A DNA stretch of 64,000 nucleotides from an uncultured Clostridia bacterium (GCA_934747775.1 CAKVHA010000002.1:6361-70360); one strand, 5' to 3'; numbered from the stretch's first letter, positions 6,001 through 62,405 are shown. Program-made: numbers and translations. The notes: a model not told the origin generated them from the letters alone.

Positions 6001-9000
6001 ATAATATCCGCTGCTGTGCCAGTCATACTGCTTGCACCAACAACATATTCCACGCCGTCGGCTATGCCAACCTCGGTTATACTGGCTGTTGTATCACGAT
6101 CTAAGTAATACTCTATTGTGGAATACTTTCTTAAATCCATATATACTTTAAAACTGTACCCCTCGGCTAAAGCAAGCATCTCGGCGTTTGTTGCAAAGTC
6201 AAACACACTGCCCATTGCAAGTAGCTTGCTTGCATCTTTGTTTTCAAATGCAGTTTGTCCTAAATACAAAGCCACACAATCATATCCGGCAATTGTGTAA
6301 TCGCGGTTTATGAATGTTGCAAGTTCTTCGTGAGTGCGAAGTGTAAGCGGTGTATCGTAGTCTATTCGTATTTGCTGATCGGCAACATAAAATCTGTTGT
6401 ACGCTCCTGAAAAACGATAATAATATTCTATTGTATAAGTTTCGGCTTCAAAAACTGGTTTTAGCGTAGTGTGTTTTGTCATTTCAATAAATGTTGATGT
6501 TAAATATGCATCATACTCGTTGCCGTCTTCGTCCGCCCATCTTCCTGTAAACACACCCAAGCCACTGTCGCGCTTTACTTGACCACTGGTTAGTTTTGAA
6601 ATGCCTTCAATATCTTTAAAGTAAATTTTTTCGCCTTTTTCCACAATTAGTGGTTGTGGAATAATTCCGCCTGTTATTGTAACACCTGTTAGGTCAAACG
6701 ACAACTGAACCGCATCCCGCCAAATTCCTTCTAGGTTTAGAATGTAGTACTTTTGAGCGTCCACATATCTTTCGTCCACAAAGCCATAAATGTTTACGAT
6801 GTTAAGATTTACATAGCTATTTTCTGTGTACATCGACTGACCGTTGTCGTATGTCCAGCCAACCAACAATTTATCATTTTTTAAAGGTTTTACTTTAAAT
6901 CCGCTCGTATCAATTAGGTAGTAGTATCCCACTTTTACAACTACTCTATATTCTTCAATCTTGCCTGGATTTGTAGAATTTTCACTATAATACTTGTAAA
7001 CAATTTCAAGGTCTGCAGCACGATAGTTTGGTGTAATTTCTAGCGGAGATGATACAATTATGGAATCAATATTTTCCATAGTTTCTACTGTGCCATTTCC
7101 TGAAACACGCCAGTCATAAAAGTTGTAACCCATAAAGGTGTTTAGCCCATAATTTGCATTTATATCGTACACAACATCTGCTAAAGTGTCGCCGTATTTT
7201 ACATCGTAAATTTTAGTAACTTCGTCTAGATATGTTGTAGGGTTTGTTAACACAAACTTAACCGAGAATGTTCTAATTTTTGCTGTAAGTGAAACTACTA
7301 AATTTGATTTAACAGTAAGGTTGCTATTAGGAATATCTAAGTAATAATCTTCCCTAATTGTTCCATCTTGATTACGGTCGCCCCTAACAAGCCAAGCGTT
7401 GTATTCATATCCGTTTTTAAAACCCGGAACAGCAACTGTAGCAAGCAAATCTCTTACACTTTGCCCGTATTTTAGGTCATTAATAGTGGTTGATGTGTGT
7501 TCAACAACGCCTTCTTCATCAAACTTAAATGTTACACTATACTTTAACTCGTTAAATTTAGGATACACATTTGTGTAAAAATCGGAAACATCGCTTGGAT
7601 ATTTTTTAAACAACCCATTAACATCATCTTTAACCGAAATAACATATCCAAGTGCTGATTTTACAAGTTCTTTTTCGCCAGAACCTGCTTTAATTGTCCA
7701 ACCAGCTAGTCCATACCCTGGGGTTAAACTTGTGTTTAACACAATTGTACCAGCGCTGCCATCGGCGTATTCAAATGTTACTATTTCACCAGACAACAAT
7801 ATTTCGTCGGTAATTTTTCTGCCATTTATTTCAAATTTTTCTTTAGAAACAAGCACTGTACCAGCACTATAGTTGGCGGAACTTGTTTGTCTTAATTGGT
7901 TTATGTTGATAGTAAAGATTACTGGACGCCATACAGCATACAATGTTTTGTCGGTTTCAAATACTGGATATCTGCCACCAGCTTCGTAGATTGTATTTTC
8001 TGCCACAAACTGGTGATAGTAACCAGAATATGTTTCGCGATTAACATCGCTCCAACCCACAAATTCATAGAATGGACGTTTTGCTACACTTGCGGGCAAT
8101 TGCGGCATTGTAATATTTATTCCGCTTACACCCAGCATTGTAAGTTCGCTTGCACTATGTCCACCTACCCACTCAACATCGGCAGCACCACCATCAAAAG
8201 TAATGGTTACGTTTTCACGCCATATAGCTTCAAAAACTAGCAATTGTGCTGGCAATTTTAAGTACAAATACGACCTATCATTTTGTTCGTCGTACTGAGT
8301 GCAATATGTTTCGGTGTCAAGTTCTACATTTCCAGCTAAGTACACCCTTGTTGCTACAAGGCGTGCCTTTTCTTTATAACTAACAAGTGAATACACAAAG
8401 TCAGAGCGGTTTGCATTAAATTCTATTTTAATCGAACTTGAACCAGCAATTGTTGTACCGTTTTTGGTTTTCCAGCCCCACATAACGTGGTCTTTGCCGT
8501 TTTCGGTTTTTGTAATATAATATTTTTCGGCTTTTGTGTTCATTGTTATAATTGTGCTGGCGCCCAATGTTTGGTCATACTTATACACAATTGGTTTATC
8601 TTCTGCATCAAACAAACTAGACTTTATTTTACTATTTTCATCAAATGAAGCGTTGGTAACATCGCCCAAGTCATAGGTGTAATAGTTTTCGTTTGCAAGC
8701 CAAACCGTATACAAATTTGCACCCTGTGCGTTTAGAAAAATTCCTTCTTCATCTGCCACATTTCCTATGTTGTATGTGTATTCTGGAATGTACAATTTTG
8801 ATGTGCTTATAAACACCGTGCTAGAATTTGTCCAACCAGCGAATGAGCGATTTAGCGGAAGCGAATATGCACGAGTGATGTTGTTAATTCTAATTTGGTC
8901 GGCAGTAAATAATACCCTGTTTGCATCTCCCACTCCAGCAATCAAGTCATAAAAACTTGGCAGCGTCATAGTATTTTTTTCTATGTTAACCGTAGCCAAC

Positions 9001-10616: not shown

Positions 10617-11909
10617 TTATAGCTTTGCTTCCACTTTCACATTAAGATTAACAACCGAATTTTCAATAAAATTATTTTGCTGTTCTATGGCGCTAACCTT
10701 TTTTAAATACTCTTTATTTTTAAACTTAAAAAGCCTATCGTTTATAGCAAAAAGGTCGCTATTTGTGCTGTATGCTTTTGCCACAATTTTAGCTAAATTT
10801 TCTTGCAATTTGTTGTTTATTGCGGTTTTAATTGTGTCCGAAATATGTGTTTTTGTAGCATCTAAGTCTTTAATACTTTCGCGAGCTGATTGCATTTCTT
10901 GTAGTGATACAAGAAGTTTTAAATTAATATTTAGCACGGCAACATCGCCATCAAATTTATAATTTACATCGATCTTTTTTTGCACAATAGAAACGCCTAA
11001 ATTCCTTTTTAGTTCTCCATTATCTTCCACATTTTCTAGCAACATAAAGCCGTGTTTTGTATAAGGATTTAATATATTAAACACATTAGCTTCATCACCA
11101 CTAAACTCGGCAACTTTTTTGCCTTTATTGTAAAGCGCAAAATCGCCTTTACACTTAATAATTTTTTCAGGTTGGCTATTGCCGCTTTGGGTTCCGCCCG
11201 AACCGCCGCCACCTTCGGAGCCTCCTTGTTCCGAGCCACCGCCCGAGCTTTCTCCACCTTGCGATGAGTTCAAGCTAGAGCCGTTGTCTTGTTCCTCAAC
11301 CTTTACAATAGTAACCCAAGCGACTGGGCTTTTTGTGAAATATCGTGCATAAAATTCTTCTATGTTCATTTCTGATAATGCAAGGTAATCACTGCCAGTG
11401 CTAACAAGTTTTGAAAAAGTTATACCATTTTCATCTTTGTTTTCAGTGTTTGTTTGAAGCAGCTCTTTCGCTTCCCCTGGACAGTAAACAAGGTTTGTGT
11501 TTTTTGCAAGGTTTGTGGAGCGCACAAAATAATCTAGCACTTCAACAAGATTATCGTCGTCTAGCCCCTTACCAATTACAATACTGTCACAGTGCGCAAG
11601 CCCAATTTCTTTACCGAGCGAAACAGAAAGTTTATACACGGCTTCGGAAATATTTTCGCCTTTACCGCTAACAAGTTTAACATTGCTGGATATTTTAGTG
11701 GGCGATTCTTCCACCACCATTAGCGCACAAAACTCATACTTGTCGTCCTTTTTATCTATGCCAATAGACGTCATAATGGCTTGTTTTTCAAACTCGGATT
11801 TTTGATATATTGCAGTAGGAAAAGTTATTGCAAAAAACAAAAAGAAAACAACAAAAGTTTTGTTTTTAATTAATTTTTTAATTAAGTTTTTCATATTGTT
11901 TTCTCCCAC
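10617..11909 (-). CDS. Ger(x)C-family spore germination receptor C subunit (probable start ATG 11894)
   Basis: Third gene of the A-B-C operon; it overlaps the end of the B gene. The block AIMTSIGIDKK matches the conserved GID block near the N-terminus of GerAC-type proteins. The N-terminus is a hydrophobic anchor with no lipobox Cys. A Gly/Ser-rich insert spans residues ~205-248. Confidence 0.7.
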   Translation of the reverse strand: MGENNMKNLIKKLIKNKTFVVFFLFFAITFPTAIYQKSEFEKQAIMTSIGIDKKDDKYEFCALMVVEESPTKISSNVKLVSGKGENISEAVYKLSVSLGKEIGLAHCDSIVIGKGLDDDNLVEVLDYFVRSTNLAKNTNLVYCPGEAKELLQTNTENKDENGITFSKLVSTGSDYLALSEMNIEEFYARYFTKSPVAWVTIVKVEEQDNGSSLNSSQGGESSGGGSEQGGSEGGGGSGGTQSGNSQPEKIIKCKGDFALYNKGKKVAEFSGDEANVFNILNPYTKHGFMLLENVEDNGELKRNLGVSIVQKKIDVNYKFDGDVAVLNINLKLLVSLQEMQSARESIKDLDATKTHISDTIKTAINNKLQENLAKIVAKAYSTNSDLFAINDRLFKFKNKEYLKKVSAIEQQNNFIENSVVNLNVKVEAKL

Positions 11910-12972
11910 GCGAAGCTATTAATAAAAACAGCATTGTTAAAACCTTAAACGCCATAAAGCTTGACGCAAACACAGCGGAACATACAATTTTTATAGCATC
12001 GGCAAAATTTAAGTAGAACGCATAAAGCAACAAGAAAATAACCACCGACACACCAACCGAAATCCAAAAGCGGCTTTTAATGCTGGTTACATATTCCACA
12101 CATTCTACAGTACAAACAAGCATTAGACCTGTTTGGGAAATTAGCACAATTGTCCAAATAACAATACTAAACCACTCCAACCTACCATTATTAGACGCCA
12201 TATTTGAATACAACGGAACATCACTAACCGCAAGACCTTGATTTACAACCATATCACCAAACAACGCAACAAAAATTACAAAAAACAACATTATAAACAA
12301 ATCGGTTATTAATGTAAACTTAATTATTGTTTTGGGCGTGTCTTTTGTGTATTCAAATCTGCCCATACAAAGCAAAAGCACTAAAAAGTCGCCAAACTGA
12401 AATGTTGTGAAAAACGAACCACTAATTATGGGCTTAGCTCCGTTTGCCATAAACGGTAAAAGGTTGTACAATTTTAATTCCCTAACCGGCAACAAAACCG
12501 ATAGTATTGCACCAGCAACAACTAGATAATAAAAAAATTCCGCAGATCTTGCAAAGGTTCTAAAACTCTTGTTCATAATATAAATTAAAAGTGCAATTAG
12601 TGGAAAAACAAACAGCGACCACTGAATATCTTTAAACAAAAACCGAACAAAATAATTTTGTAATTCCTTAATAGACATTAACGCTTTAAACACAAAAAAC
12701 ACAGCAAGCAAACTTACAATAATTTTACTCATCACCTTTCCAAGCGACCCTTCTAGCACTTCATAAAAAGTTTTATTCGGGTTTTTCTTTATGACATAAA
12801 CTAGCAACATAACAAACATAAAGTCCACACATAATGACAAAAACACCGATAAATAACAATCGTTTAAAGCATAGCTTCCCACAACCGCTGGAAATATTAA
12901 CACCTTTAATGATATTATCGACAAACTTAAAACCACACCCAATTGGTGGTTTGTTATTTGTTTCTCTTTCAT
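11878..12972 (-). CDS. Spore germination receptor B subunit (GerAB/GerKB-type permease)
   Basis: 364 aa and almost entirely hydrophobic, with about 10 TM segments. It sits between the A and C subunits, and its start abuts the stop of the A gene at 12972. Confidence 0.7.
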   Translation of the reverse strand: MKEKQITNHQLGVVLSLSIISLKVLIFPAVVGSYALNDCYLSVFLSLCVDFMFVMLLVYVIKKNPNKTFYEVLEGSLGKVMSKIIVSLLAVFFVFKALMSIKELQNYFVRFLFKDIQWSLFVFPLIALLIYIMNKSFRTFARSAEFFYYLVVAGAILSVLLPVRELKLYNLLPFMANGAKPIISGSFFTTFQFGDFLVLLLCMGRFEYTKDTPKTIIKFTLITDLFIMLFFVIFVALFGDMVVNQGLAVSDVPLYSNMASNNGRLEWFSIVIWTIVLISQTGLMLVCTVECVEYVTSIKSRFWISVGVSVVIFLLLYAFYLNFADAIKIVCSAVFASSFMAFKVLTMLFLLIASRGRKQYEKLN

Positions 12973-14417
12973 TATTTTAATCTCCTTTTGTTTATGTTTT
13001 TAATACTTTCTGGTCGTGTTTTAATATCCACAATATCCTTTTTAATTGCGGCATCTTGAAAGTCGTGTTTAATGTAAGGCGAAAAAGGCGCAAGATAAGC
13101 GCTGCCATAATTATCAAAGTCGTTAAGATAGAATATAAGATAAATGGCAAGCATTATCATTCCGTAAAATCCCAAAACTCCACCTGCAATTGTGAAAGCA
13201 AATCTTAACACAATAAACTGTGGCGACTGGTCTGGAATTGTATATAGTGTAATGCCGCTAAGCGCCACAACCATAACTGCTGGCGGCGATACAATACCCG
13301 CACTAACGGCAGTTTCACCCAAAATTAATGCTCCCACAATAGACAATGCTATTCCCAAATATTTAGGCATTCTTATACTGGCTTCGTACAGTATTTCAAA
13401 CAACAATAATATAAAAAGCGTTTCGGCAAATGGTGAAAATGGTAAGCCCAAAGTTGTGTTTACAATTGTAATAATAAATGTGAGCGGAATTATTTTATAA
13501 TGATAAAGCTGTACTGCAACATACATTCCTGGCAACATTAGCGTAATAAAAATACACACAATTCTTATTAATCTAACAATGCTAGCACGCTTACTATTAC
13601 TATAATAATCGTCGGCACTTTGGATATCTTCTAGCAATATAAATGGCAATGTTAGCACAATTGGCGAACCATTTACAATTATAGCCACTCTGCCCTCTAA
13701 AAGCTTTGACACAACCACGTCTGGCTTTTCGGAGTTTCCAACTTGCTTAAATACACTATATGGTCTACCTTCTAAAAACTGCCCAATATAATATGAATCT
13801 ATAATGCCATCAATTTTAATATTTTCTAATTTTTCTTTTATTTTAAGTGGCAACTTTTTGTCACAAACATTATCTAAATAAACAACAACGATATCAGTAT
13901 TGGTAAGCTCGCCCACTTTTAGATTTATTGTTTTTAAATGTTGTGTTGCTAATATTTCTTTAATTAACGCCAAGTTTGTTTTGTAATTTTCTACAAATCC
14001 GCGTCGTGGACCTTTTAAAACCGCACTTGTAGGCGGCTCAGCAATGGCACGTTCTTTTAACTCGTCTACACCTAGCACCAGCGCGTTTGTTTGACCTTCT
14101 ACAAACACTATCGCCTTACCTTTTGTAATTTGCTCCACAACATCACTCATACTGTTTGTTAGCTGGCTATCGGGAAAGAACAATACATTTTTATCTAAGT
14201 ATTGCATAATGCCGTTTTGAGGCAGCTTTTGGGCGGAAATAAGCGGTTCGAGCACCGACTTACCTATTTGTTCAATATTAACTAATCCATTTGAAAACAC
14301 GCAGCAAGCGTTGTGTTTTTCAATTTTAAATTCTCTAACAATAAAATCACTATTATTGTTAAACTGCGTTTTTAAATAATCAACAATTCGCTTTAAGTTT
14401 TTTGTAATTTTTTTCAT
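12972..14417 (-). CDS. Spore germination receptor A subunit (GerA family)
   Basis: 481 aa with a soluble N-terminal half and a C-terminal multi-TM region. Blocks such as GRVAIIVNGSPIVLTLP and MLPGMYVAVQLYHYKIIP are typical of GerAA/GerKA proteins. AAAGGTGA RBS precedes the ATG. Confidence 0.8.
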   Translation of the reverse strand: MKKITKNLKRIVDYLKTQFNNNSDFIVREFKIEKHNACCVFSNGLVNIEQIGKSVLEPLISAQKLPQNGIMQYLDKNVLFFPDSQLTNSMSDVVEQITKGKAIVFVEGQTNALVLGVDELKERAIAEPPTSAVLKGPRRGFVENYKTNLALIKEILATQHLKTINLKVGELTNTDIVVVYLDNVCDKKLPLKIKEKLENIKIDGIIDSYYIGQFLEGRPYSVFKQVGNSEKPDVVVSKLLEGRVAIIVNGSPIVLTLPFILLEDIQSADDYYSNSKRASIVRLIRIVCIFITLMLPGMYVAVQLYHYKIIPLTFIITIVNTTLGLPFSPFAETLFILLLFEILYEASIRMPKYLGIALSIVGALILGETAVSAGIVSPPAVMVVALSGITLYTIPDQSPQFIVLRFAFTIAGGVLGFYGMIMLAIYLIFYLNDFDNYGSAYLAPFSPYIKHDFQDAAIKKDIVDIKTRPESIKNINKRRLK

Positions 14418-14490
14418 ATTTCACCTTTAAATTATTTTGCGTGGTAGAATAGCAAATTATACAAAAATCAGCCTTTTTAAAAATAATGTA

Positions 14491-14552
14491 TTTACTTTTA
14501 TTAAATTTGTGATACAATATATTTATCACATTTAAAAAGAAGGTTTATCACA
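14491..14552 (+). promoter_or_regulatory. Candidate promoter overlapped by an inverted-repeat operator
   Basis: -35 is TTTACT at 14491-14496; extended -10 is TGaTACAAT at 14510-14518. The inverted repeat is TGTGATA (14508-14514), N9, TATCACA (14524-14530). A third TATCACA half-site lies at 14546-14552, just before ATG 14556. Confidence 0.35.
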
Positions 14553-14555
14553 CTT

Positions 14556-15194
14556 ATGACAAAGAATATTCTTCCACCAGCAGACACACGAAGCCACCAA
14601 GTAGAAACTATGGTTGCTAGCTCCAACAGCGGCGGCACTTGGACAATTGGAAATATCTCTGTTTCCATTCCAGAAAAATTTCGTGACAACAAAAACTTTA
14701 AAAAGCGTATGGTTTTGTATAGCACATATCTTAAAACACAAGACCCTATTATTTGGGATTTATACCTAAACCAACGCAGCAAATTAACAAAGGTAACACT
14801 TGACTGGATTATTTCAAAATATGATATTAGCGGCTTAAACAACGAACTTAAAGAAGAATTTATTCAAGCCTCTAAAATGTATTTAAGTAATATTAAAGCA
14901 GAAATAAAAACACTAGACGAAGAAGCATTAAAGAAAAGAAACGAAAAAAACAGAGAATATCAAAAACAAAAAAGAGAAGCCATTAAAGCAGGCACTTATG
15001 TTAATAAAAACGAAGCAAAGGCTCAAAGAAGAAAAGAAAACGAAACTAGCGAAAGCAATTCAATGTCTTTAGAAGCATTAAAGGAAAAGCTTAACGAAAG
15101 AAAAACAAAGAAAGCAGCAGAAAGAGAACTTGAAGAAAGAAAACAACTATCTCAAAAAATATCTTGGGATACTGGAACAAATTGCAAGTATTAA
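14556..15194 (+). CDS. Hypothetical protein with a Lys/Glu-rich coiled-coil-like C-terminal half
   Basis: 212-aa ORF, divergent from the ger operon and followed by a clean hairpin terminator. I recognise no family motif. The C-terminal 100 aa are K/E/R-rich (KKRNEKNREYQKQKREAIK..ERELEERKQL). The RBS is weak (AGAAGG 13 nt upstream). Confidence 0.5.
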   Translation: MTKNILPPADTRSHQVETMVASSNSGGTWTIGNISVSIPEKFRDNKNFKKRMVLYSTYLKTQDPIIWDLYLNQRSKLTKVTLDWIISKYDISGLNNELKEEFIQASKMYLSNIKAEIKTLDEEALKKRNEKNREYQKQKREAIKAGTYVNKNEAKAQRRKENETSESNSMSLEALKEKLNERKTKKAAERELEERKQLSQKISWDTGTNCKY

Positions 15195-15225
15195 TAGTTG
15201 GATTTTAGTATTAACACAAACAAAA

Positions 15226-15255
15226 AAGCATATTGAATAATCGATATGCTTTTTT
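15226..15255. terminator. Rho-independent terminator (bidirectional) between convergent genes
   Basis: AAGCATAT, 10-nt loop, ATATGCTT. An A-run lies on the left and a T-run on the right. Confidence 0.7.
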
Positions 15256-15332
15256 ATTTTACATTATTAACATTATTTAATCACTTCGCGTTGATAACAT
15301 TTAATTGTTTAGTGGTCTATTATTCACCAACG

Positions 15333-17996
15333 CTATCTGTTGATAAATTTAATATTAAAAGATGCGGTAGTAAATTCTTTTACAAACTCATAAGTTCCAT
15401 CATCTTTTTGAACATTACTAGCAGATGTTGTGTATGCGCCAATTCTTTCAAGCGTTATTGTTTTTCCACTTAATTGCGAATTGATATAACTAGCAAACAA
15501 GGTTTCTTTTTGAGTATCGTCCATTGCTGCAATCTCAGCTGCTGTTTTGCCATTAGCAAGCAAAACATTTTCAATAAAATCTTTAGAAATAGTTACATTA
15601 GACGATTTTTGAATGTTGTTTGCTTCCACAAATGCTAAGTATTTTTGCAAACGTTTTGCGCTAGAAATGCTTGCATTTATTTTAAGCACAGCCAAAACAC
15701 CAACCTTATCTTCGGCGTATTCATAGCCAGCCAAACGTTGTGGAAGGCGGTATTTAATAATTTCACCATTTGCCAATTTAAAATATCCGTCTTCATTATA
15801 TTCCAAATTTACTTGTGTTGCAAACATGCTAATATCATTTTCATCTACTTCATTAGCACTTACAAATTCTATTGAACAAGCACTGTACAAATATTTATTT
15901 TTCTTTAGAGCGTCAAAAATTTCTGTTTGGGTAAGCAAAACCGCTTTACCTGCCCTACTTGCGTTCTTTTTTGCCTCGCTCATATTATTTGAAACATACT
16001 CTTGCGTAAACACAACTTCAATTTCAGAAACATCGGCAGTAAGTGCGTAATCAAACAAAGCCTTAACGTCGGCGTCGGAATTAATTACACGAGTTAAGTT
16101 TGTGGCGCCATTAGAATAAACTGTTTCGCCATAGTAATTGAATCGATTGTTTGCTGGCATCATTTTAAACAACACATCGTTTTCAAAAGGTTTGTGAGTT
16201 GTAATTTCGTTGTCGCTAACCATAAAATATGTATGAAGTGCAACTTCGTTTTCGTTAACATGTCCTTCAACATAATAATTTGCTTTAACATCGCTAGAAT
16301 ATGCAGTATACATTGGATAAATGCTGCCACTTACAGTTTCAGTCCACGTGATATCAACAACATACCACGCGCCGTTTACATAAACCTTGTTCCAAGCATG
16401 ACCGCCACCACTAGCAGTACCCATAACCCTAACAGCATTTATGCCTTCCATATTGCACATAAGCGCAAAAGCCTTACTCATTGCATCACACACAACAAGT
16501 TTGTTTTTGTTAAGAAAAAACCCTTCAAGATAGTAGCACGACATATACATAGGATTAATATCGTTGTTGCTGGTTGCACTTTTATTGTAGGTGTCGTAAT
16601 CGTAAATGCTATTATCCATAATGTAGTCAAAAATTGCTAGTGCTTTTTCATAATCGGTCATACCGTTATAAATAATTTCTTGCAAGGCGGTTTTTGCTGC
16701 GGCATAAATCAAATCCGCACGGCTGCCTTTTACACACACTGGTGTAACGTGATTTGTAACCGCCCAATAAAGCTGTTCGCTGCTGCTAACACTGGTTTTT
16801 AACAACCAACTATCACTTACAAACTTGTCATCGCGAGCAGTGTAACCACTTTTACCGCTTAAAGTTTTGTAATATGGTGTTATTGCCACTTGACTAATGG
16901 TCGACGAACTTGCACCTTCTCCAGTATACGATGGCTCAGTTACTTTTGTACCATTCTTGCTGGAATAGCGGCAAGTTAGTTGGAATAAATAATCACCATT
17001 ATCGCCATATTTGTTAAGTTTTGAAAGAGTTGGAAGCGATGAAAACGCGTAAGTTTCAAAGTACGCATAACTCATAATATAATTGTCTGCGTTGTTTGTT
17101 ACGGTTTCAAAATATGTATCGTTGTAATTAGAATAAAATTTGCTTTCTACCAAAAACTTTTCGCTTTCGCTACGCATTATAAATACGTAGTAATAAAAGT
17201 TTTTAAGTTCGTCTAGATTTTCAATAAAATAATCGTAAACTCCGCCTTTAAAAATGTAATATTTTGTAGTGTATGCTGAGCGCGAGCTATTGTTTACTGG
17301 GTTGTAATACAAAATGTTTGAAACATAATATTTTTCATTATAAACCGAACTAACTCTAGCGGCAATTACATCGTGCGACACAATATAATTGTCTTCTATT
17401 GTGTAGCTGTAGGTGTAATTTAGCTCGTTATCTTCGGTTAAAGTTTCTGGCTTATTTACGGTAAGGTTTACAACGCCAAGAGTGTTGGAAAATAACGAAA
17501 GTTCAAAAGCCGATATACCTTTAAATGGCGATTTCCAAGTTATTGTTTTGTTGTTAATAACCACATCTTTTGGACTATAAACCTTGCTTTCTTCGTACTT
17601 AATGCCACTAAGGTTGTTGTTTAAAATATCTAGCGCAGTGCCATAAGTTATGGCCACAGTGTTTGTTTTTTTGCTGCTAGAATATTGCGAATTACCTATT
17701 GCTTTTACTTGAAAGCGGTATTCGCCTGCCTTTTTTAAATAATCTGTGTAATTAAATGTATAAGTTGATTTATCCTTTTTTTCAACAATTTCGTCAACTT
17801 TTTGTTCGTTTATATAAATTTCATAACTGCTGGCGTTGTGGTTTGCATTAAACGACAGCGTATTTGTTGTTTGGTCTACGCTAATTGTGGGAGTATCAAG
17901 CTTTGCACTGCTAAAAAAGTTGCAGCCGCCAAGCACACACGCGCACATCACAATAACTATTAAAGAACAAACAACGCGTCTAAAATATTTTTTCAT
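15333..17996 (-). CDS. Transglutaminase-like (Cys-His-Asp core) surface lipoprotein
   Basis: Signal peptide ends in the lipobox VLGGC. Core motif is VVCDAMSKAFALMC..GINAVRVMGTASGGGHAWNKVYVNGAWYVVDITW, matching the transglutaminase-like superfamily pattern. The start is 20 nt after the upstream gene's stop and has an AAAGAGG RBS, so the two are likely co-transcribed. Confidence 0.7.
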   Translation of the reverse strand: MKKYFRRVVCSLIVIVMCACVLGGCNFFSSAKLDTPTISVDQTTNTLSFNANHNASSYEIYINEQKVDEIVEKKDKSTYTFNYTDYLKKAGEYRFQVKAIGNSQYSSSKKTNTVAITYGTALDILNNNLSGIKYEESKVYSPKDVVINNKTITWKSPFKGISAFELSLFSNTLGVVNLTVNKPETLTEDNELNYTYSYTIEDNYIVSHDVIAARVSSVYNEKYYVSNILYYNPVNNSSRSAYTTKYYIFKGGVYDYFIENLDELKNFYYYVFIMRSESEKFLVESKFYSNYNDTYFETVTNNADNYIMSYAYFETYAFSSLPTLSKLNKYGDNGDYLFQLTCRYSSKNGTKVTEPSYTGEGASSSTISQVAITPYYKTLSGKSGYTARDDKFVSDSWLLKTSVSSSEQLYWAVTNHVTPVCVKGSRADLIYAAAKTALQEIIYNGMTDYEKALAIFDYIMDNSIYDYDTYNKSATSNNDINPMYMSCYYLEGFFLNKNKLVVCDAMSKAFALMCNMEGINAVRVMGTASGGGHAWNKVYVNGAWYVVDITWTETVSGSIYPMYTAYSSDVKANYYVEGHVNENEVALHTYFMVSDNEITTHKPFENDVLFKMMPANNRFNYYGETVYSNGATNLTRVINSDADVKALFDYALTADVSEIEVVFTQEYVSNNMSEAKKNASRAGKAVLLTQTEIFDALKKNKYLYSACSIEFVSANEVDENDISMFATQVNLEYNEDGYFKLANGEIIKYRLPQRLAGYEYAEDKVGVLAVLKINASISSAKRLQKYLAFVEANNIQKSSNVTISKDFIENVLLANGKTAAEIAAMDDTQKETLFASYINSQLSGKTITLERIGAYTTSASNVQKDDGTYEFVKEFTTASFNIKFINR

Positions 17997-18016
17997 AAAA
18001 CACTAAAAACCTCTTT

Positions 18017-18910
18017 TTAAGACTGCAATTTGTTTCCTTGTTGGTTGTAACCCTGCTCCATATTTTTCAACCAACGACGTGGTGCTGTACTCCACGCGCT
18101 AGATGAGTCTTCGCCAATATTTTTTAAATTAGCTTCAACTGCTTCTATAGTTATTATAATTTCGGCAGATTTTCCGCCAAAAGCATTTACAGAGTTTTCA
18201 TAACTAAACTGAACTTCATTAAAAAGCGTTAGTCTTTGTTGTGGTTTTAGCGAACCATAAAAATAATAGTAGCCGTCCCACTCGTAGTTTTCTGCTTCTT
18301 CGTCTGGATTATAAATGTGCCAGTTTTCTTTTTCAATTTCAGTTAGTGTAGGGTTTAATACATTATAATACTCTACACCGTCTAATACAAGAGCTATTTT
18401 GTATCTTATATATATATTTGTGCCATTAACGTCGGTTTCTTCGTCGCCTTCATACTTGTTTGAGTTTCTAACACCCACAACAACTGGAAATTTATCACCT
18501 GGGTAAATTTCTTTTTTGCGGATGCTAATATCACTAGGACTGCCCTGTTCGGGGTCTATGTTTTCTATCATATTACTACTCAATCTAATTTCTGCACCAC
18601 CAACAATTGTACCTTTGTTTCTGGTGAAAAAGTAGATTGCAACGCCAACGCCAGCAAGCAATAAAATAATTAATAAAATTATTAAAATTCGCTTAAACCA
18701 CACACCAGCCGCTCGTTTTTTGTCGTCATCATCGTCGTCATCATTTCTATTTAGTTGTTCCGAAAGTTTTTTAATGTTTTGGTCATTTTTTTCTTTATCT
18801 AAATTTGCTTTTTGAGTAGGATTTGTAGGTTTTTGGGGTGCATTGGAAGAACCCGAACTTGCGTTCGTGCCAAATGATTTATTTGTTGTATTTAAATTGT
18901 CATTTTCCAT
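18017..18910 (-). CDS. TasA/camelysin-like paralog D: membrane-anchored, with an N-terminal disordered cytoplasmic tail containing a poly-Asp run
   Basis: About 65 aa of low-complexity N-terminus (..NRNDDDDDDDKKRAAGVWFKR), then the TM helix ILIILLIILLLAGVGVAIYFF. The ectodomain shares landmarks with neighbours B and C: YPGDKF, IYIRYKIAL, WDGYYYFYGSLKPQQ, SAEIIITIEAVEAN, AWSTAP. Confidence 0.55.
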   Translation of the reverse strand: MENDNLNTTNKSFGTNASSGSSNAPQKPTNPTQKANLDKEKNDQNIKKLSEQLNRNDDDDDDDKKRAAGVWFKRILIILLIILLLAGVGVAIYFFTRNKGTIVGGAEIRLSSNMIENIDPEQGSPSDISIRKKEIYPGDKFPVVVGVRNSNKYEGDEETDVNGTNIYIRYKIALVLDGVEYYNVLNPTLTEIEKENWHIYNPDEEAENYEWDGYYYFYGSLKPQQRLTLFNEVQFSYENSVNAFGGKSAEIIITIEAVEANLKNIGEDSSSAWSTAPRRWLKNMEQGYNQQGNKLQS

Positions 18911-18959
18911 ATTTTTGCACTCCTTTTATGTTTTATTATGTAGTTATGCGGTTTTATTT

Positions 18960-19075
18960 ACATTGGATATAAGTAAGAGAGTAGAAATATACTAATTTCG
19001 TGTACTTACTGGACTACCCCACCACCGCAAAGCAGTCCCCCGCCCGCTTACAAGGGGCGGATAAATCTCAAATAA
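18960..19075. other. GC-rich structured intergenic element (candidate cis-regulatory RNA or small RNA); strand unresolved
   Basis: Locally GC-rich inside an AT-rich spacer. Nested hairpins are GGACT..(18 nt)..AGTCC and CCGCCC-gcttacaag-GGGCGG. The 14-mer AAATATACTAATTT (18985-18998, plus strand) is identical to the promoter-like part of the 20.6-kb repeat, where it lies on the minus strand. Confidence 0.35.
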
Positions 19076-19172
19076 CAACTTTATTTTACAAGTGAACACG
19101 GGTGTAAGGTTTATTCTTAGAATATGTTATCACAACAACCTGTGTATTACTCCTAGTTTCTTCAATGAGATT

Positions 19173-19883
19173 TTAGGCTGTACCCCACTGTTCGTGAAGT
19201 TTTGCCCCCATAATACCGTTTCCTAATGGGTCTTCAATATTTTCTACCTGTAAGGTTTGAACTTGAAAATTAAAGAAAATATTTTTATTTGCGTACTTAT
19301 TATCTAATTCTTTACTTACGCTTACTGTTCCATACAAGAATGTTAATTCGTCACCCGGATTTAGTATGCGTGTAACCGGTTCGGTGTTACTAGACCCCGC
19401 AAGTTTTAGCACATACCAATAGTCTGGTTTCATAGGGTCGCGGCTGAAATTAACTAGCACCCAATCGGCACTATTAATATCACCAGTGGTCACCGCATCG
19501 GTATTGCTATCCTTAACAGTAACTTCGTGCCAATCGGCTAACACTCCGTTTTCGTCATAAGCGTGTTCAAACTCAATAACAAGTCTTGCCCTAACATACG
19601 CTTTCGACGAGTTGTTTGACATTTTTAAGCCGATGTTAAAGCTCAAATTGTCACCTGGGATAACCGCTTGTGGAGTTCCCACAGCTAGCGGATCCATTTC
19701 AAACTGCGTTGTTATATCAACCACAATTGGCTTAGCAAAAGTGATGTTAAGGTGCTGCGATTCTGTTTTTATGTACCACGCAAAGGTTAGCGAAAAAGCA
19801 GACATCACAACCACAAAGATTGCAATAACAACATAAACCGCTGCAAGCATATTAAGTTTCGATTGTTTTCGCTTTTTCTGCAT
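19173..19883 (-). CDS. TasA/camelysin-like secreted protein, paralog C
   Basis: N-terminus is MQKKRKQSK plus a hydrophobic helix, then TFAWYIKTES..NITFAKPIVVDI, which parallels the CalY/TasA region GGTFAYFSD..NTFAAGTLDL. Later landmarks are VIPGDNL, AYVRARLVIEF, DYWYVLKL, LNPGDELTF, and NKNIFFNFQVQTLQVEN as the terminal alternating strand. Confidence 0.6.
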   Translation of the reverse strand: MQKKRKQSKLNMLAAVYVVIAIFVVVMSAFSLTFAWYIKTESQHLNITFAKPIVVDITTQFEMDPLAVGTPQAVIPGDNLSFNIGLKMSNNSSKAYVRARLVIEFEHAYDENGVLADWHEVTVKDSNTDAVTTGDINSADWVLVNFSRDPMKPDYWYVLKLAGSSNTEPVTRILNPGDELTFLYGTVSVSKELDNKYANKNIFFNFQVQTLQVENIEDPLGNGIMGAKLHEQWGTA

Positions 19884-19946
19884 TTCGTTTCCTTTTTTTT
19901 CGTTTTAATGATTTTTTTATTTATTCTTTATGTTAAAAATATAATT

Positions 19947-20558
19947 TTAGCCGTTTGTATTAAAGTAATTTGTAACTGTTGTTTTAAATGTTTCGGGAGC
20001 ATAAGCCCAGCAGCCTGTGCCCGATTCTATTAACGCTTTACAAGCGCCGCCTTGCGCCTGGATTGCGGTAACGGTAAATTTAATATTTACGCTTTCTGCT
20101 GCGTTTCCTACTGTATTATTAAAGTCCAAGGTTCTAAATGAATTCATAAAGGTTATTGCACCGCTTTTTGAAACAGCGCCATTATAATAATAGTAATTAT
20201 TTTCTGTTCCACCTACCCACATATTGCCATATGGTAAAACGCGGACATAATCGGCGGTTTCCACTTTTACACACACAAAAACCGCTCCGCTTGTGCTGGT
20301 ATTGGTTATTGTAAGAGTGTAATCGTCACCGCTATAATAGTTGTTTGGGTTTAAAACTGGCAAAGCAAATTTGCCGTCGTTGTTCGTTCCGCCGCCAAAC
20401 TTAAAGTCCACAAGTCCTGCGGTAAGCGTATTATCCAAACTATGGGTATCAAACAAGTACGACATTGTTATGGTGGAAATAAAAGTTATTGCAACAATTA
20501 CTGACATTGCAAAAATTGCGATACAAGCTATTTTATCTTTTTTTGTCCAATTTTTCAT
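19947..20558 (-). CDS. TasA/camelysin-like secreted protein, paralog B
   Basis: MKNWTKKDK plus a hydrophobic helix, then TMSYLFDTHSLDNTLTAGLVDFKF. This is the closest match in the window to the SipW-type signal and N-terminal strand of CalY (TFAYFSDKEVSNNTFAAGTLDLTL). Further landmarks are VFVCVKVE, NNYYYYNG, SVNIKFTVTAIQAQG. AAAGGAGGAG RBS. Confidence 0.65.
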   Translation of the reverse strand: MKNWTKKDKIACIAIFAMSVIVAITFISTITMSYLFDTHSLDNTLTAGLVDFKFGGGTNNDGKFALPVLNPNNYYSGDDYTLTITNTSTSGAVFVCVKVETADYVRVLPYGNMWVGGTENNYYYYNGAVSKSGAITFMNSFRTLDFNNTVGNAAESVNIKFTVTAIQAQGGACKALIESGTGCWAYAPETFKTTVTNYFNTNG

Positions 20559-20576
20559 TTATCTCCTCCTTTGCCA

Positions 20577-20759
20577 CTGGTCGTGGCGGACTGTGTCTTA
20601 CTTGCTAAATTAGTATATTTTCTTTGTTCGGTCAATGTTTTAGTCGCACCGATTTTGTCAATATACTTATGTTAAAGCATCAACTCTTTCTATTCTTGTG
20701 CTGGTCGTGGCGGACTGTGTCTTACTTGCTAAATTATTATATCTTCTTTATCCGTTCAA
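20577..20759 (-). repeat. Direct duplication of a ~59-nt promoter/leader-like module (copies at 20577-20635 and 20701-20759, 124-bp period)
   Basis: 36 nt are identical (plus strand CTGGTCGTGGCGGACTGTGTCTTACTTGCTAAATTA), followed by 23 nt with 5 mismatches. Read on the minus strand each copy is TTGA(C/A)C..TATA(C/A)TAATTT-AGCAAGTAAGACACAGTCCGCCACGACCAG. The proximal copy runs straight into the RBS of paralog B. Confidence 0.8.
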
Positions 20760-20783
20760 GGTTTTTGTCACACTAATTCTATC

Positions 20784-22364
20784 TTAAATTTCTTGGAAAC
20801 AAATTGCGTCGATGTATGTAATTGCATTTGCAGGGAAATACACCATTAGTAACAAAGTGCCATTATCAGTTAATGCGGTGGTTTCTTGAGTTATAATTTC
20901 CCAATCACCACTACAAGAATATAATGATTGGTTGTTTCTACCCCAAGCTTGATATGTTCCGCCTGTCTTTTGAATATACACTGTGCGATTGTTAAATGTA
21001 TCCATGTTTTTGGCGGTAGACTTATATGCCAAAGTTATACGATATTTTTTCCCTTTTAAGCCATTAGCATTAAACTGAATAATGTTTGTGTTTTTTGTTA
21101 TATCTCCGCCAGTAATTGTAGCCTTTAAACTTTGGCTGCCTTCAAATGCTGTTGTATTGTCTACACTAAGTGTTCCTGTTATATCAACCGAAAACAAACC
21201 ATCTGCACGAGATTTGCTTGTATATGTTGTGCCAGCAGCATAACTCTCAAAGCCGCCGTCTATTACTTGAATGTTTTTATTTGGATTATATGTATTAGAT
21301 GCTGCTGTAGGTGTTGCACCGCTCCACGTGTACATTAGAAGTTCGGTTTTGCTAACCTTATCGTAAAACTTGCCAGACTTTGATGGAACAAGGTTGTAAA
21401 GCAAATTATTGTCGTGGTTGTAGAATTTAATTCCACCAAACTCAACTTCTTTACTCCAATTAGTATCCCAAATTAAGCCAATATATGATGCGTTTTTTGC
21501 TGTACTATCCACTGCGGATATTGTAAACGTAACCGTATTTAGCGAACCATTTGCAAAAGCTGCTGCTGTCATACTTGCGCTTGCGGTTAGTTTGGAAAAG
21601 TTCCAATTTGTCTTGTTGTTTATGCCAATCCACGCACTGTTATATGTACAAAAGAAAATACTATCATAAGTTGCGGTTGTTTTTGCGGTAAGTTCTATTT
21701 TAGAAATATTTTCCCATTTTAAGTCTAGTTTTGGGCCATATACTGCGCTAGCTGGTTTAGTAAGTGTGTAGCTGTTTGCAAACCAACCTGCTGGAGTGTT
21801 ATCCCAAGGGTCGCGATAGCCTAGGCTAAACGCACCACTTTTTGCGTCCACCATTTCGGCGGTTAGTTTTATTTCAACTGGTCGATTAGCGCCTTCACCT
21901 GTAGGAACTATGCTGGTTATTAGCGAAACACTTTGACCGACTTCTAATGTTGTGTTGTAGTAATAATAGCCGGAATATGTGTTTTTAATATTTTCGTCCG
22001 ATGCTAAAAAGCCGCTATTTATAACCACTTCGCTAAGGTGTTTTGTGGTGCAGATTTCATTGGTTGTGTCAGTGATTGCAATGCAATAATACACGCGCAA
22101 GTACACTGGGGTTGTGCTGTCGTTAGTTATGGTAGAACCGCTGGTTGTTGTGGTGCGGGTTCCTGCAGTGCCAAGGTTGTATTTTGCGGAATTAAACCTG
22201 CTGCCAAGTTCCACTTTTGCTGGATTGGTGCTAGGGGTAGTAACGCTACCTTCCTTAAACAGCCAAGCCAATGTGTAAGAGCACGCAAAGTAAAAAAGAG
22301 TAAGCATAACAAGTATGCCACACAAAAGCACTATTGATGTTTTTTTAGTTTCCCATTTTTTCAT
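20784..22364 (-). CDS. TasA/camelysin-like N-terminal domain fused to a ~340-aa C-terminal extension ending in a CBM4/9-like carbohydrate-binding module, paralog A
   Basis: MKKWETKK plus a hydrophobic helix, then YTLAWLFKEGS. N-domain landmarks are PVYLRVYY, SGYYYYNTTLEVGQS, VEIKLTAEMVDA. The C-terminus IQVIDGGFESYAAGTTY..AFEGSQSLKATITGG..GKKYRITLAYKS resembles the GGFE..G..SL.V..Y pattern of CBM_4_9 domains. Confidence 0.55.
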   Translation of the reverse strand: MKKWETKKTSIVLLCGILVMLTLFYFACSYTLAWLFKEGSVTTPSTNPAKVELGSRFNSAKYNLGTAGTRTTTTSGSTITNDSTTPVYLRVYYCIAITDTTNEICTTKHLSEVVINSGFLASDENIKNTYSGYYYYNTTLEVGQSVSLITSIVPTGEGANRPVEIKLTAEMVDAKSGAFSLGYRDPWDNTPAGWFANSYTLTKPASAVYGPKLDLKWENISKIELTAKTTATYDSIFFCTYNSAWIGINNKTNWNFSKLTASASMTAAAFANGSLNTVTFTISAVDSTAKNASYIGLIWDTNWSKEVEFGGIKFYNHDNNLLYNLVPSKSGKFYDKVSKTELLMYTWSGATPTAASNTYNPNKNIQVIDGGFESYAAGTTYTSKSRADGLFSVDITGTLSVDNTTAFEGSQSLKATITGGDITKNTNIIQFNANGLKGKKYRITLAYKSTAKNMDTFNNRTVYIQKTGGTYQAWGRNNQSLYSCSGDWEIITQETTALTDNGTLLLMVYFPANAITYIDAICFQEI

Positions 22365-22695
22365 TTTTTCAAAAGTACCCTATCAATTTCTTTTTTATTT
22401 TATATTAAAATAAAATTTTAGTAAAGCAAATTTACATAATATTATATATAATATTAGTATTATCAAATCTTTATAAAATACTCGCGGAACAAGCGTAAAG
22501 CAATATGTTGTGTTTTAATTTAATTGCAGCCACAAAACGAAAGTTTAAAAATGCGAATAAAAACCAAACTTAAAATTTTTAAACGCAAAAACCACATAAA
22601 ACATTTATCAAATTAAAACCGATTGAAATATTTACAAAACCAGAACAACCACAACAACACAAAGTTCCATTTTTATATAATTTACAACCGCATTA

Positions 22696-22736
22696 AAAAC
22701 AAAAAATATCCTTGTTTTTAAAAGGATATTTTTTTA
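22696..22736. terminator. Rho-independent terminator downstream of degV (bidirectional hairpin)
   Basis: AATATCCTT, loop, AAGGATATT, with an A-run on the left and a T-run on the right. Confidence 0.65.
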
Positions 22737-22755
22737 TATTAAAATTGATAAAACC

Positions 22756-23652
22756 TTATGGAAGTAGGCGTTTTTCATTGCTAATAAATGTAAATGCAAC
22801 GGCATTTGGACCTACGTGCGCGCCAATAATTGGACCCATAATTCTTAGTTCTGGTTCAATTCCAAACGCGTTTTTAATTTCTTTTTGGAATTCGGTTGCA
22901 AGCGGAACATTATCGGTGTGAACAATGCAGCATTTAAAGTGTTCGGTGTTGAAAGTAAAGTTTTGTTTAACTTCTTCCAAAATACTTTTAATAGCCTTTT
23001 TGCTGCCCATTTCTTTTCTTACAATTTCCAATTTGCCAGTTTGCGTAAACTCTATAATTGGTTTTAGGCGAAGCATTGTGCCAATGGCTGCTTTAACACC
23101 GCCAATCCTGCCTCCGCGTTTTAAGTACATAAGGTCGTCAACCAAAATAAAGTGCTGAATTAAGCCCTTAAGTTTGTTTATTTCATCAAAAGTTTCTTCC
23201 ACAGTTGCACCAGCGTCACGCATTTCGCACGCTACCCTAACCAAAAAACCTTCGGCTGCGGTTGTTGTGGTGCTCTCAAGTGCAAGGTAATTAATATCTG
23301 GATATTTTTCTTTAACAATTTCAATAGCTTTTAGTGCGTTGTCTATTGTTGGGCTTAACCCCTTGCCTTGCGAGATATGAATTGCGTTTTTAACACCATC
23401 TTCCGCCATTTTTGTAAACAAGTCAATGTGAGATTGCAAGTTTAAAATGGATGTTTTTGCAACACTACCTGCACGCAATTTATTGTAGAAATCTACATAT
23501 TCCGATTGCGACTGAAAATTATCAAGATACTCGTTAAGTTCTCCGTTTTTGTCTACCGTAAAAGTTAGTGGCGAAACATACACGTCGTATTTTTTTATTT
23601 CGTCGGCATATAATTCGCAAGTACTATCGCTGCTTACAGCAAAATTTTTCAT
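22756..23652 (-). CDS. DegV family fatty-acid-binding protein
   Basis: 298 aa. Starts MKNFAVSSDSTCELY (DegV proteins begin with an S/TDS..D/L block). LMYLKRGGRIGG is the conserved DegV GGRI motif. Confidence 0.8.
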   Translation of the reverse strand: MKNFAVSSDSTCELYADEIKKYDVYVSPLTFTVDKNGELNEYLDNFQSQSEYVDFYNKLRAGSVAKTSILNLQSHIDLFTKMAEDGVKNAIHISQGKGLSPTIDNALKAIEIVKEKYPDINYLALESTTTTAAEGFLVRVACEMRDAGATVEETFDEINKLKGLIQHFILVDDLMYLKRGGRIGGVKAAIGTMLRLKPIIEFTQTGKLEIVRKEMGSKKAIKSILEEVKQNFTFNTEHFKCCIVHTDNVPLATEFQKEIKNAFGIEPELRIMGPIIGAHVGPNAVAFTFISNEKRLLP

Positions 23653-23710
23653 AAATTACTCCTTAATTGATTTAATGATACAACAAAACTAAGCAGTTTT
23701 CAAAATAAAA

Positions 23711-24976
23711 TTAATCACAAACTCTATTTTTTTTGATTGCTCGTTTTTTCTCTGCTTTTTCTTGCATATAGTTTTCGTGAGTTTGAAGGTAGTTAATTAA
23801 AATTTTACGAGAACGCTCTTCGTTGGCAGGAATCAAGTAGCCCGAAAAACCAATTGCCGCAGCAACCGCAGCGATAACTGGGATCATTGAACCCATAACG
23901 CCAAGCATCATTGGAGCAATCACTCCTATATTTGCCGCAACCTCTCTATTAAACAATGCCCTATTAGCACAGCCCATAATACGCGACTTTGGAATCATTC
24001 GTCTTAAACAAAACATTGAAACACAGCCATACGCAAGACCAACCAAAATGTTGATTACAAACAAAAGCGGAGTGTTTGTTACAAATATTAGCGATCCAAC
24101 ACCAAGCATACAAATCACACAACTAGTCACAAGCAGCGGAGTTGTTTCTTTTTTATTGTCAATTAGTCCAAACACATAACAGCCCACTCCATACATTGCG
24201 TTGTATACAGCGGTTATTGTGCCTGTGATGCCGTAGGACGAAAATAGCAAATACAAATGAATTATATATGCAATACCTACAACATCCATAAAACAGAATA
24301 TAAAGTACACAAACCAATAACCAGATAGCATTTTGTGAACTTGTTTTTCTTGAAGTTTATTCAATTCGGGTTCTTTTGAAAATTCAATAGCCGCATTGCT
24401 AACCGAATCTTTATTAAAACCTTTTTCATTTTTGCTTTTAACATAGTACACAACAAGCGGAATTACAGATATTAGATACAACACAATTGAAATAGTCAAA
24501 ATTATGTTGCGATTTATATCCATTATAAAACCACCCACAATTACAGCAATCAAAACACCCGCTTGTTCCAAAAGGCGTGTAAGTCCCATCGAATTTCCGC
24601 CATCTTCGTTTGCGGACGCATAGTTGTAAATATATTCCATAGGCAAATACTTAAAGGCTTCGCCCATTCCATAAAACACAATAACCCCAATAATGCCAAC
24701 CCACATATTTGTGTCTATTAAAAAAATGCTAAGCGAATAAAGCACAACTGGAACAATTCTAATAATTAAAGCAATTTGCGGTTTTGTTTCAAAAAATTTT
24801 CTAAACACAACAACAGTAGCGAGCTTTAACAAATATTCCGCCGCCACAAGCACACACGCTAGCACAACCGAACCCGTAGCTTGCAATACAATTACAGGAA
24901 TAAATGCCCCTACAAGTTTTGTAGCGACATTACTTAGCACTTTATAAAAATTTAATAGCGACATTTGGTTGTGCAT
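23711..24976 (-). CDS. Multi-pass membrane transporter, probably MFS-type
   Basis: About 12 hydrophobic segments. The likely true start is ATG 24976 (GGGGA RBS), not the upstream ATG 25048 in the track. I saw no diagnostic signature beyond the topology. Confidence 0.45.
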   Translation of the reverse strand: MHNQMSLLNFYKVLSNVATKLVGAFIPVIVLQATGSVVLACVLVAAEYLLKLATVVVFRKFFETKPQIALIIRIVPVVLYSLSIFLIDTNMWVGIIGVIVFYGMGEAFKYLPMEYIYNYASANEDGGNSMGLTRLLEQAGVLIAVIVGGFIMDINRNIILTISIVLYLISVIPLVVYYVKSKNEKGFNKDSVSNAAIEFSKEPELNKLQEKQVHKMLSGYWFVYFIFCFMDVVGIAYIIHLYLLFSSYGITGTITAVYNAMYGVGCYVFGLIDNKKETTPLLVTSCVICMLGVGSLIFVTNTPLLFVINILVGLAYGCVSMFCLRRMIPKSRIMGCANRALFNREVAANIGVIAPMMLGVMGSMIPVIAAVAAAIGFSGYLIPANEERSRKILINYLQTHENYMQEKAEKKRAIKKNRVCD

Positions 24977-61970: not shown

Positions 61971-62100
61971 ATTATCACCTTTTATATAGTTTAACGCCCC
62001 ATATTACAACAACACAATTTTTTTAATTTACTAATTTTGTAACAAAAAGGTGGATATTGTAGATTTTTAAAAATAAAGCTAATTTTTAAAACCATAGCCG

Positions 62101-62108
62101 CATACAAT
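62101..62108 (+). promoter_or_regulatory. Sigma-E-like -10 element upstream of yabP
   Basis: CATACAAT matches the mother-cell sigma-E -10 consensus CATACAnT, 22 nt before ATG 62130. The -35 match is poor. Confidence 0.25.
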
Positions 62109-62129
62109 ATATAAATTTAAGGAGATTAT

Positions 62130-62405
62130 ATGGAAAATTTATTAGTTAACAAACCAGAAGTTTTAAACAACAAAATTACACTAGACAACCGCAATAAAAT
62201 TGCCATTACGGGCGTAACAAAAATGATTAGCAGCAACGACACAATGCTTGTTATGCAAATTAAAAACACCCGACTTAACGTGTGCGGAAAAGCAATTAAA
62301 ATAGAAAAACTGGATATTGAAAACGGCATGCTAGAAGCAAGTGGCGAATTTGACAGCATTAAATACAACGACGCAGGCGGACTATTTAAAAGGATTTTTA
62401 AATGA
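62130..62405 (+). CDS. yabP: Sporulation protein YabP
   Basis: 91 aa. ITLDNRNKIAITGVTKMISSND..LNVCGKAIKIEKLDIENGMLEASGEFDSIKY follows the YabP pattern. Confidence 0.8.
   Translation: MENLLVNKPEVLNNKITLDNRNKIAITGVTKMISSNDTMLVMQIKNTRLNVCGKAIKIEKLDIENGMLEASGEFDSIKYNDAGGLFKRIFK

Follow-up and report, generated by a model that had tools for sequence, protein, structure and literature searches.

The TasA fibres of Bacillus subtilis are built by donor-strand exchange. An N-terminal strand of TasA, freed by the signal peptidase SipW, completes the beta-sandwich of the next subunit and so gives a polymer. This N-terminal segment is the donor strand in the structure of the TasA fibre, and TapA has been proposed as the donor of the first strand and as the anchor of the fibre (PMC9674648). 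In Bacillus biofilms the principal protein scaffold consists of TasA-type fibres, whose relatives in strict gut anaerobes are almost unstudied. We have analyzed a stretch of 64,000 nucleotides (the window from here on) of an uncultured Clostridia bacterium (GCA_934747775.1, CAKVHA010000002.1:6361-70360), which contains five consecutive genes, A to E. An original prediction, made from the sequence before any search, described the products of A, B, C and D as divergent TasA/camelysin-like paralogs and that of E as a transglutaminase-like lipoprotein. Our analysis makes it likely that A-E are one cell-surface fibre module of the TasA/camelysin kind (i.e., SipW-dependent and assembled by donor-strand exchange), part of a cluster conserved in Christensenellales-like gut Clostridia.

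The closest described systems are similar to this locus only in part. The tapA-sipW-tasA operon of B. subtilis and the sipW-tasA/calY loci of the B. cereus group involve the same superfamily, with a signal that ends in T-x-A and has an aromatic residue and a donor-strand segment behind it. They also have a minor accessory protein as starter and anchor of the fibre, and a SipW-type peptidase, the latter being present in the clusters orthologous to ours as well. However, they contain one or two paralogs where there are four orthogroups here, and the sequences of A-D are too divergent for the families PF12389 or TIGR04088. Unlike TapA, the anchor candidate D is itself TasA-like and has an uncleaved transmembrane helix and a cytoplasmic tail. 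Besides, there is here an obligatory neighbour, a transglutaminase-fold lipoprotein of about 800-900 aa, and the lineage of the window has no sipW at the locus. The sipW-bsaA-bsaB-bsaC operon of Clostridium perfringens (TIGR04090) is likewise a clostridial operon with several paralogs, others with several paralogs have been noted, and the BsaA fibres are reported to be membrane-anchored and covalently locked (10.1101/2024.11.04.621531). In contrast to what we propose for E, the isopeptide lock of BsaA forms spontaneously, with no enzyme, through an N-E-K triad, BsaC is of the von Willebrand A type, and that paper makes no mention of a transglutaminase-like protein or lipoprotein (10.1101/2024.11.04.621531). 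TIGR04090 gave very weak matches with B (E=0.9) and with the B orthologue of a related locus, L018 (E=0.0035). The archaeal ABP pili (Pyrobaculum) and AbpX (Pyrodictium) are also fibres of the donor-strand kind, and the peptidase that cuts them is of archaeal type; here AbpX (9sj2) matches weakly by sequence (E=0.14) and ABP (7ueg) by fold (E=0.011). We know of no accessory transglutaminase-fold enzyme for the archaeal TasA-like fibres.

The evidence that places A-D in the TasA superfamily comes from remote-homology profiles, pairwise BLAST among the four proteins revealing faint similarity only. Close clusters of B are rare, 10 among 5.8 billion proteins, all of them metagenomic. A profile built from them (A1) was searched against 1.84 billion representative proteins and retrieved 207 at E<=0.001, mostly of 180-230 aa and matching nearly end to end. 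From these we prepared an alignment of 60 sequences (B of the window, six close relatives and 53 remote matches), 34 of which carry PF12389. The profile of the 53 remote relatives (A6) was then aligned by hhalign with A (residues 17-195; 98.9%, E=3e-17), C (19-220; 98.9%, E=1e-17) and D (77-287; 99.5%, E=4e-23), and A was also aligned with the B family (97.3%, E=2e-11). As a hidden Markov model, A6 scores the proteins of the window at 47-102 bits. When the sequences of the PDB were searched with a joint profile of B and its relatives, the TasA fibre 8aur came first (E=0.0027), followed by monomeric TasA (5of1) and AbpX. The alignment covers the donor strand of TasA (FNDIKSKDATFASGTLDL) and the last strand, with the FDTHS..LTAGLVDF segment of B aligned with FNDIKSKDATFASGTLDL; the B-family profile alone found nothing relevant among PDB sequences. 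The proposed kinship is therefore upheld at the level of the superfamily: by these profiles, and not by fold, A-D are very divergent TasA/camelysin members that form four distinct and anciently separated orthogroups.

The peptides quoted in the original prediction are all present, namely TLAWLFKEG (A31), TMSYLFDTHSLDNTLTAGLVDF (B31), TFAWYIKTES (C33) and NITFAKPIVVDI (C46) in the N-terminal part, and IKLTAEMVDA (A165), IKFTVTAIQAQ (B159), FFNFQVQTLQVEN (C203) and IIITIEAVEAN (D251) in the last strand. Some of the landmarks said to be common to the four paralogs had to be corrected. The overall pattern is real, but a literal PGD occurs in C and D only. The W-x-x-A-P tail is found in B (WAYAP) and D (WSTAP), while A has WDNTP and C has none, and the basic stretch and hydrophobic helix come in D after a polar N-terminal region of 74 residues. 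The consensus of the 53 remote relatives reads TLAYFxD..N.IT.G.VDI, PG, Y.RVK, W, YYYY, N....I..TAEAIQA, W. Since the same pattern is seen there, the landmarks are features of the family and not chance resemblances.

The signal helices of A, B and C end in T-x-[AS] followed by an aromatic residue, which lines up with the cleavage site of TasA and with that of CalY as well. The minimal TasA-like subunit is B, where the signal ends in T-M-S before Y and is followed by LFDTHS and by the donor-strand-like LTAGLVDF. In C it ends in T-F-A before W, with YIKT and ITFAKPIVVDI behind, and residues T33, A35 and P52 do not vary among 14 orthologues that represent all lineages. According to the alignment with TasA, the donor-strand segment remains part of the mature protein after the predicted cleavage behind T-x-[AS], and the proposed donor strand would not be lost on export. 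One of the paralogs of the related locus L015 passes TIGR04088 (21.2 bits, cut-off 19). The antigen I/II C2 domain PF17998 was considered for C and rejected, because the copy of the window scored 25.6 bits against a cut-off of 27.1 and none of 13 orthologues matched. In A the signal ends in T-L-A before W, the TasA-like domain spans residues 17-195 approximately, and a C-terminal extension of about 330 aa follows. Orthologues of A vary from 204 to 545 aa, and the extension is shorter or absent in several of them (in L013 and L019 the whole of A has just 204 aa). No Pfam family at E<=1 and no PDB sequence match at E<=5 was obtained for the extension, and the orthologues of A do not match any carbohydrate-binding family. 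The carbohydrate-binding module postulated for A, and with it the idea of a tip adhesin, is thus left unsupported, given the lack of family and PDB matches and the variability of the extension among lineages.

Paralog D has a different predicted architecture. A cytoplasmic low-complexity tail of 74 aa (residues 1-74, 18689-18910), rich in Q, N, S and P and with a poly-Asp run, contains the motif IKKLSEQL and is followed by one transmembrane helix and the TasA-like domain. The same architecture was found in 16 orthologues, and no T-x-A cleavage motif appears in any lineage. The length of the tail varies between 45 and 304 residues among lineages. Despite this, the motif [DE]x[LI][KR][KR]Lx[EQ]QL is located 10-25 residues before the membrane helix in every one of them (loci L001-L022), and the longest tail, that of L015, carries two copies. 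A donor-strand-like segment starts some five residues after the transmembrane helix. The proposal that D is a membrane anchor agrees with these features, since the protein lacks the cleavage motif and has a cytoplasmic tail. Its predicted role is that of a membrane-anchored base or nucleator of the fibre.

The annotation of E as a transglutaminase-like lipoprotein was confirmed in all its parts. Residues 438-548 match PF01841 (E=3e-11, 43.9 bits against a cut-off of 23), the Cys-His-Asp core corresponds to C503, H533 and D548, and a lipobox LGGC at residues 22-25 (VLGG-C25) follows the signal helix. The residues C25, C503, H533 and D548 are kept without exception by 22 homologues and by all the distant loci (six distant orthologues in the case of the triad). 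In the AlphaFold2 model (predicted local distance difference test, pLDDT, 83; predicted template modelling score 0.84) two FN3-like domains come after the lipid anchor, then the catalytic domain and finally further domains at the C-terminus. The best solved relative of the catalytic region is TglA of Streptococcus pyogenes (9crn), both by sequence (E=8e-14) and by Foldseek (E=5e-8), with tandems of FN3 domains next in the Foldseek ranking. TglA is much smaller (361-379 aa versus 887 aa for E), and a literature search on its function gave nothing relevant. No recognizable wall-binding domain such as LysM, SH3 or SPOR appeared in the Pfam scan of E. From its sequence, E is a lipoprotein of the transglutaminase fold with an intact catalytic site, and it is found with D in every case.

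We have compared this locus with related ones. In its own lineage, made up of human-gut metagenome-assembled genomes that carry the label uncultured Clostridia or 'Christensenella sp.', the genes follow one another as MFS-DegV-A-B-C-D-E-GerA/B/C, and this order holds down to about 30% identity. As these flanks are conserved too, the argument for a module has to rest on loci with other flanks. Three of them (L018, L020 and L022) have the order giant protein - sipW - A - B - C - D - E, the same as here and within unrelated flanks, and in L015 the same genes are distributed over two divergent strands with sipW on the divergent one. Each paralog of L015, L018 and L020 gives its best match with the corresponding orthogroup profile of the window, although the A matches are weak in L018 and L020. 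In L022 the matches of B, C and D hold, and the position of A is taken by a TasA-like gene that does not match the A profile. The five-gene arrangement is therefore conserved in relatives, also within unrelated flanks and in rearranged form in L015, and giant protein - sipW - A - B - C - D - E, as read from these loci, is the fuller form of the cluster. Every locus has D and E as neighbours, in no fewer than five different flanking contexts, which indicates that E is a real partner and not just a gene that happens to lie nearby. Two more loci illustrate how close the link between D and E is. Locus L021 (609-3914) has only a D-like gene (241 aa) and E, located before GerABC and with an RNase III gene upstream; E keeps there the triad and the lipobox. 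As only 608 bp of contig remain upstream of the D-like gene, A-C could lie elsewhere in that genome. A gene of the dCMP/cytidine deaminase family (132 aa) is inserted exactly between D and E in L019 (9600-9998), and a deaminase gene is also found in L022, just downstream of E on the other strand.

The original prediction had stated that no sipW was present in cis, and this was corroborated. A pattern scan of the 64-kb window found no signal peptidase, and neither phmmer with SipW nor a profile of the SipW proteins of the related loci matched any stop-to-stop frame of 50 aa or more, either across the window or within 10 kb in loci L001-L014. The peptidase of L018 passes TIGR02228 (archaeal/SipW type; 56 bits, cut-off 51.85) and also matches the SipW model, and that of L015 passes PF10502. 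The one of L022 is recorded in 38 blocks of the sequence collection (one source gives it as signal peptidase I of a Clostridiales bacterium), so the sipW-bearing form is common. As the same orthogroups and E lie beside a SipW-type peptidase in L018, L020, L022 and L015, the lineage of the window is a sipW-less derivative of the cluster, the absence of sipW being a derived state of this lineage only.

The module could work as follows. Export of A, B and C would go through Sec, with a cut behind T-x-[AS] made by a SipW-type peptidase whose gene would lie elsewhere in the genome, and the new N-terminal strand of each subunit would complete the beta-sandwich of the next one, as in TasA. D would retain its signal anchor and combine in one protein a TapA-like donor of the first strand and the membrane anchor. 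We assign it this TapA-like part because the signal anchor is kept and the donor-strand-like segment begins only about five residues outside the membrane. A, which is encoded first and whose C-terminal extension varies, may provide a minor or terminal subunit. The roles that the original prediction gave to A (tip), B and C (shaft) and D (anchor), and the cross-linking by E, are likewise inferences. E would sit on the outer face of the membrane, raised by its FN3 stalk, with the Cys-His-Asp site acting on an amide bond of the fibre or of its base. The chemistry we prefer for E is a covalent lock or attachment by transamidation, through which an enzyme would do what happens spontaneously in the isopeptide lock of BsaA; cleavage by E is nearly as likely. 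A bolder version of this proposal is a tentative one that may well prove wrong. In it E would be a dedicated fibre enzyme making covalent links among TasA-like subunits that have undergone donor-strand exchange, or between these and D or the wall, and the conserved cytoplasmic motif of D could allow the control of assembly from inside the cell.

Several results weigh against a TasA-type fibre module. None of A, B, C or D has a direct Pfam or NCBIfam match to PF12389 or TIGR04088, the families expected from the original prediction (PF12389 at E<=1; N-terminal 61-64 residues alone at E<=10), and PF12389 stayed below its cut-off on the orthologues of L015 and L018, with a best score of 14.3 bits against 22.5. 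The AlphaFold2 model of B is a beta-sandwich (pLDDT 75) that retrieved nothing from the PDB by Foldseek at E<=0.001. The TasA fibre 8aur appeared at rank 21 (E=0.045, template modelling score 0.35), a weak match. The other weak matches include further donor-strand fibres such as PsaA, cannulae and ABP pili (7ueg at rank 4), and all of them are too weak to be counted as evidence. None of the best 120 of 1303 SipW relatives is located on contigs of the lineage of the window, the gene order of that lineage proves little alone with its flanks equally conserved, and PF01841 enzymes comprise proteases and amidases as well as cross-linkers. Alternatively, A-D might be secreted or wall-associated camelysin-like proteins that do not polymerize, perhaps belonging to the spore surface or to a matrix, and E an unrelated lipoprotein enzyme. 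The structure search had no significant match to any fibre subunit, the module adjoins in its own lineage a gerA-type germination operon, and TasA itself was first described as spore-associated (PMC9674648). However, the ger neighbourhood is specific to that lineage and the flanks are different in L015, L018, L020 and L022. Besides, the most conserved parts of the proteins are the strand that follows the cleavage site and the last strand, precisely the segments of TasA aligned by the profile, and four orthogroups in a fixed order with a membrane-anchored member fit assembly better. On balance we consider the absence of polymerization quite improbable.

Other alternatives concern the action of E. 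The fibre reading of A-D would be unchanged if E were a release or maturation protease that cuts D or the neighbouring giant protein, similar to LapG, a cysteine protease related to transglutaminases that acts on the giant adhesin LapA by cutting its retention module. The likeness is one of analogy only, in that both would be extracytoplasmic Cys-His-Asp enzymes of transglutaminase-like type acting on a surface protein, with the gene of a giant protein nearby. In L015, L018, L020 and L022 the gene of a giant protein lies beside sipW, and in the window there is one near the module. The Cys-His-Asp site belongs to the papain/transglutaminase fold, E always adjoins D, the sole paralog that stays in the membrane, and in L021 only D and E are kept. 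However, E belongs to PF01841 and not to the LapG family, and LapG is a protein of the Gram-negative periplasm that works with a LapD receptor, of which there is no counterpart here. In addition, the giant protein of the window is separated from the module by four genes and is unlike those of the sipW loci. By BLAST it has no similarity to the giants of L018, L020, L022 and L015, which are homologous to one another. A protease of this kind is possible, even if doubtful. E might otherwise remodel the cell wall, cutting or forming peptide cross-links of peptidoglycan either for the passage of folded subunits or as a sortase-like tie of the fibre to the wall that does not depend on LPXTG. Pseudomurein endoisopeptidases are transglutaminase-fold enzymes that cut isopeptide bonds of the wall, the two FN3-like domains could lift the catalytic domain off the membrane, and A-D have neither LPXTG nor any other wall-sorting signal. 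Since E has no recognizable wall-binding domain, and BsaA fibres are reported to have their anchor in the membrane rather than in the wall (10.1101/2024.11.04.621531), this role seems unlikely to us.

If A-E do form a fibre module, as we favour, what is already known are the protein family and the donor-strand principle. What is new is the fixed set of four orthogroups, the bitopic TasA-like membrane subunit (D) whose cytoplasmic motif is conserved, a transglutaminase-fold lipoprotein as obligatory neighbour, the association with the gene of a giant protein and, in one lineage, a locus that has lost sipW. The literature searches are consistent with the original claim that no TasA system of this composition has been described, with the qualification that the lack of SipW holds for this lineage only. 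They returned no paper linking camelysin, TasA or SipW with a transglutaminase-like protein, nor a report for any TasA system of a membrane-anchored TasA-like subunit with a cytoplasmic tail or of an obligatory transglutaminase-fold lipoprotein. Should E indeed lock or release the fibres, this would be a new way of building or shedding surface fibres in Gram positives. It would also suggest a candidate for how these hard-to-culture gut bacteria aggregate with their partners. If E joins the fibres covalently, this could represent a sortase-independent route to covalent surface fibres in Gram-positive gut bacteria. The four orthogroups, available in sipW-bearing and sipW-less versions, provide a ready set of constructs for expression and cryo-electron microscopy.

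The five genes are arranged head to tail (Table 1), with gaps of 225 nt between A and B, 63 nt between B and C, 262 nt between C and D and 20 nt between D and E. The short spacing that had been noticed before E is present and contains a ribosome-binding site, AAAGAGG. Scanning the minus strand of the four gaps gave no terminator-like site, and the hairpin of Table 1 is found after E, which makes the co-transcription of A-E plausible from sequence.

Table 1. Position of the genes of the module and of associated elements in the window.
Feature	Position	Strand	Description
Gene A	20784-22364	minus	526 aa, paralog A
Gene B	19947-20558	minus	203 aa, paralog B
Gene C	19173-19883	minus	236 aa, paralog C
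Gene D	18017-18910	minus	297 aa, paralog D
Gene E	15333-17996	minus	887 aa, lipoprotein with transglutaminase-like core
Terminator-like bidirectional hairpin	15222-15255	both	3' of E and of the convergent gene 14556-15194
A-B intergenic region	20577-20783	minus	two copies of an 83-nt unit upstream of B

The space between A and B is filled by a direct repeat of 83 nt (20577-20659 and 20701-20783), with copies 86% identical and 124 nt apart, that abuts the stop codon of A. In relatives the same gap measures only 18-155 nt. The repeat may be a duplicated leader or promoter of B. The AT-rich gap between C and D contains a GC-rich hairpin, CCGCCC..GGGCGG, at about 19040-19062 of the minus strand and with no T run behind it, which could be a processing or stability element or else a weak attenuator. 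No known RNA element was found by an Rfam scan of positions 14300-23800.

Some features of the neighbourhood deserve mention. Convergent to E, on the plus strand (14556-15194), is a gene for a Lys/Glu-rich protein of 212 aa that has no Pfam family and is found at the same position in the loci of the own lineage, with 174-221 aa. The germination operon of GerA/GerB/GerC type that adjoins the module (10617-14417) gives the context of a spore-former, and open reading frames at 59694-63044 resemble, by eye and from their N-terminal sequences only, SpoIIE, TilS and YabP/YabQ/DivIC. A protein of 4191 aa (P0020), with 21-29 weak matches to the tail of B, was tried as the neighbouring giant protein and discarded as an unrelated repeat protein, each match being of 7 bits at most. 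The giant protein of the window itself is coded on the minus strand at 3-10535, where the end of the window cuts it, leaving the N-terminal 3511 aa with a signal anchor. Its orthologues have 4139-4182 aa and faint Flg_new repeats, and the gene is kept downstream of GerABC in the own lineage.

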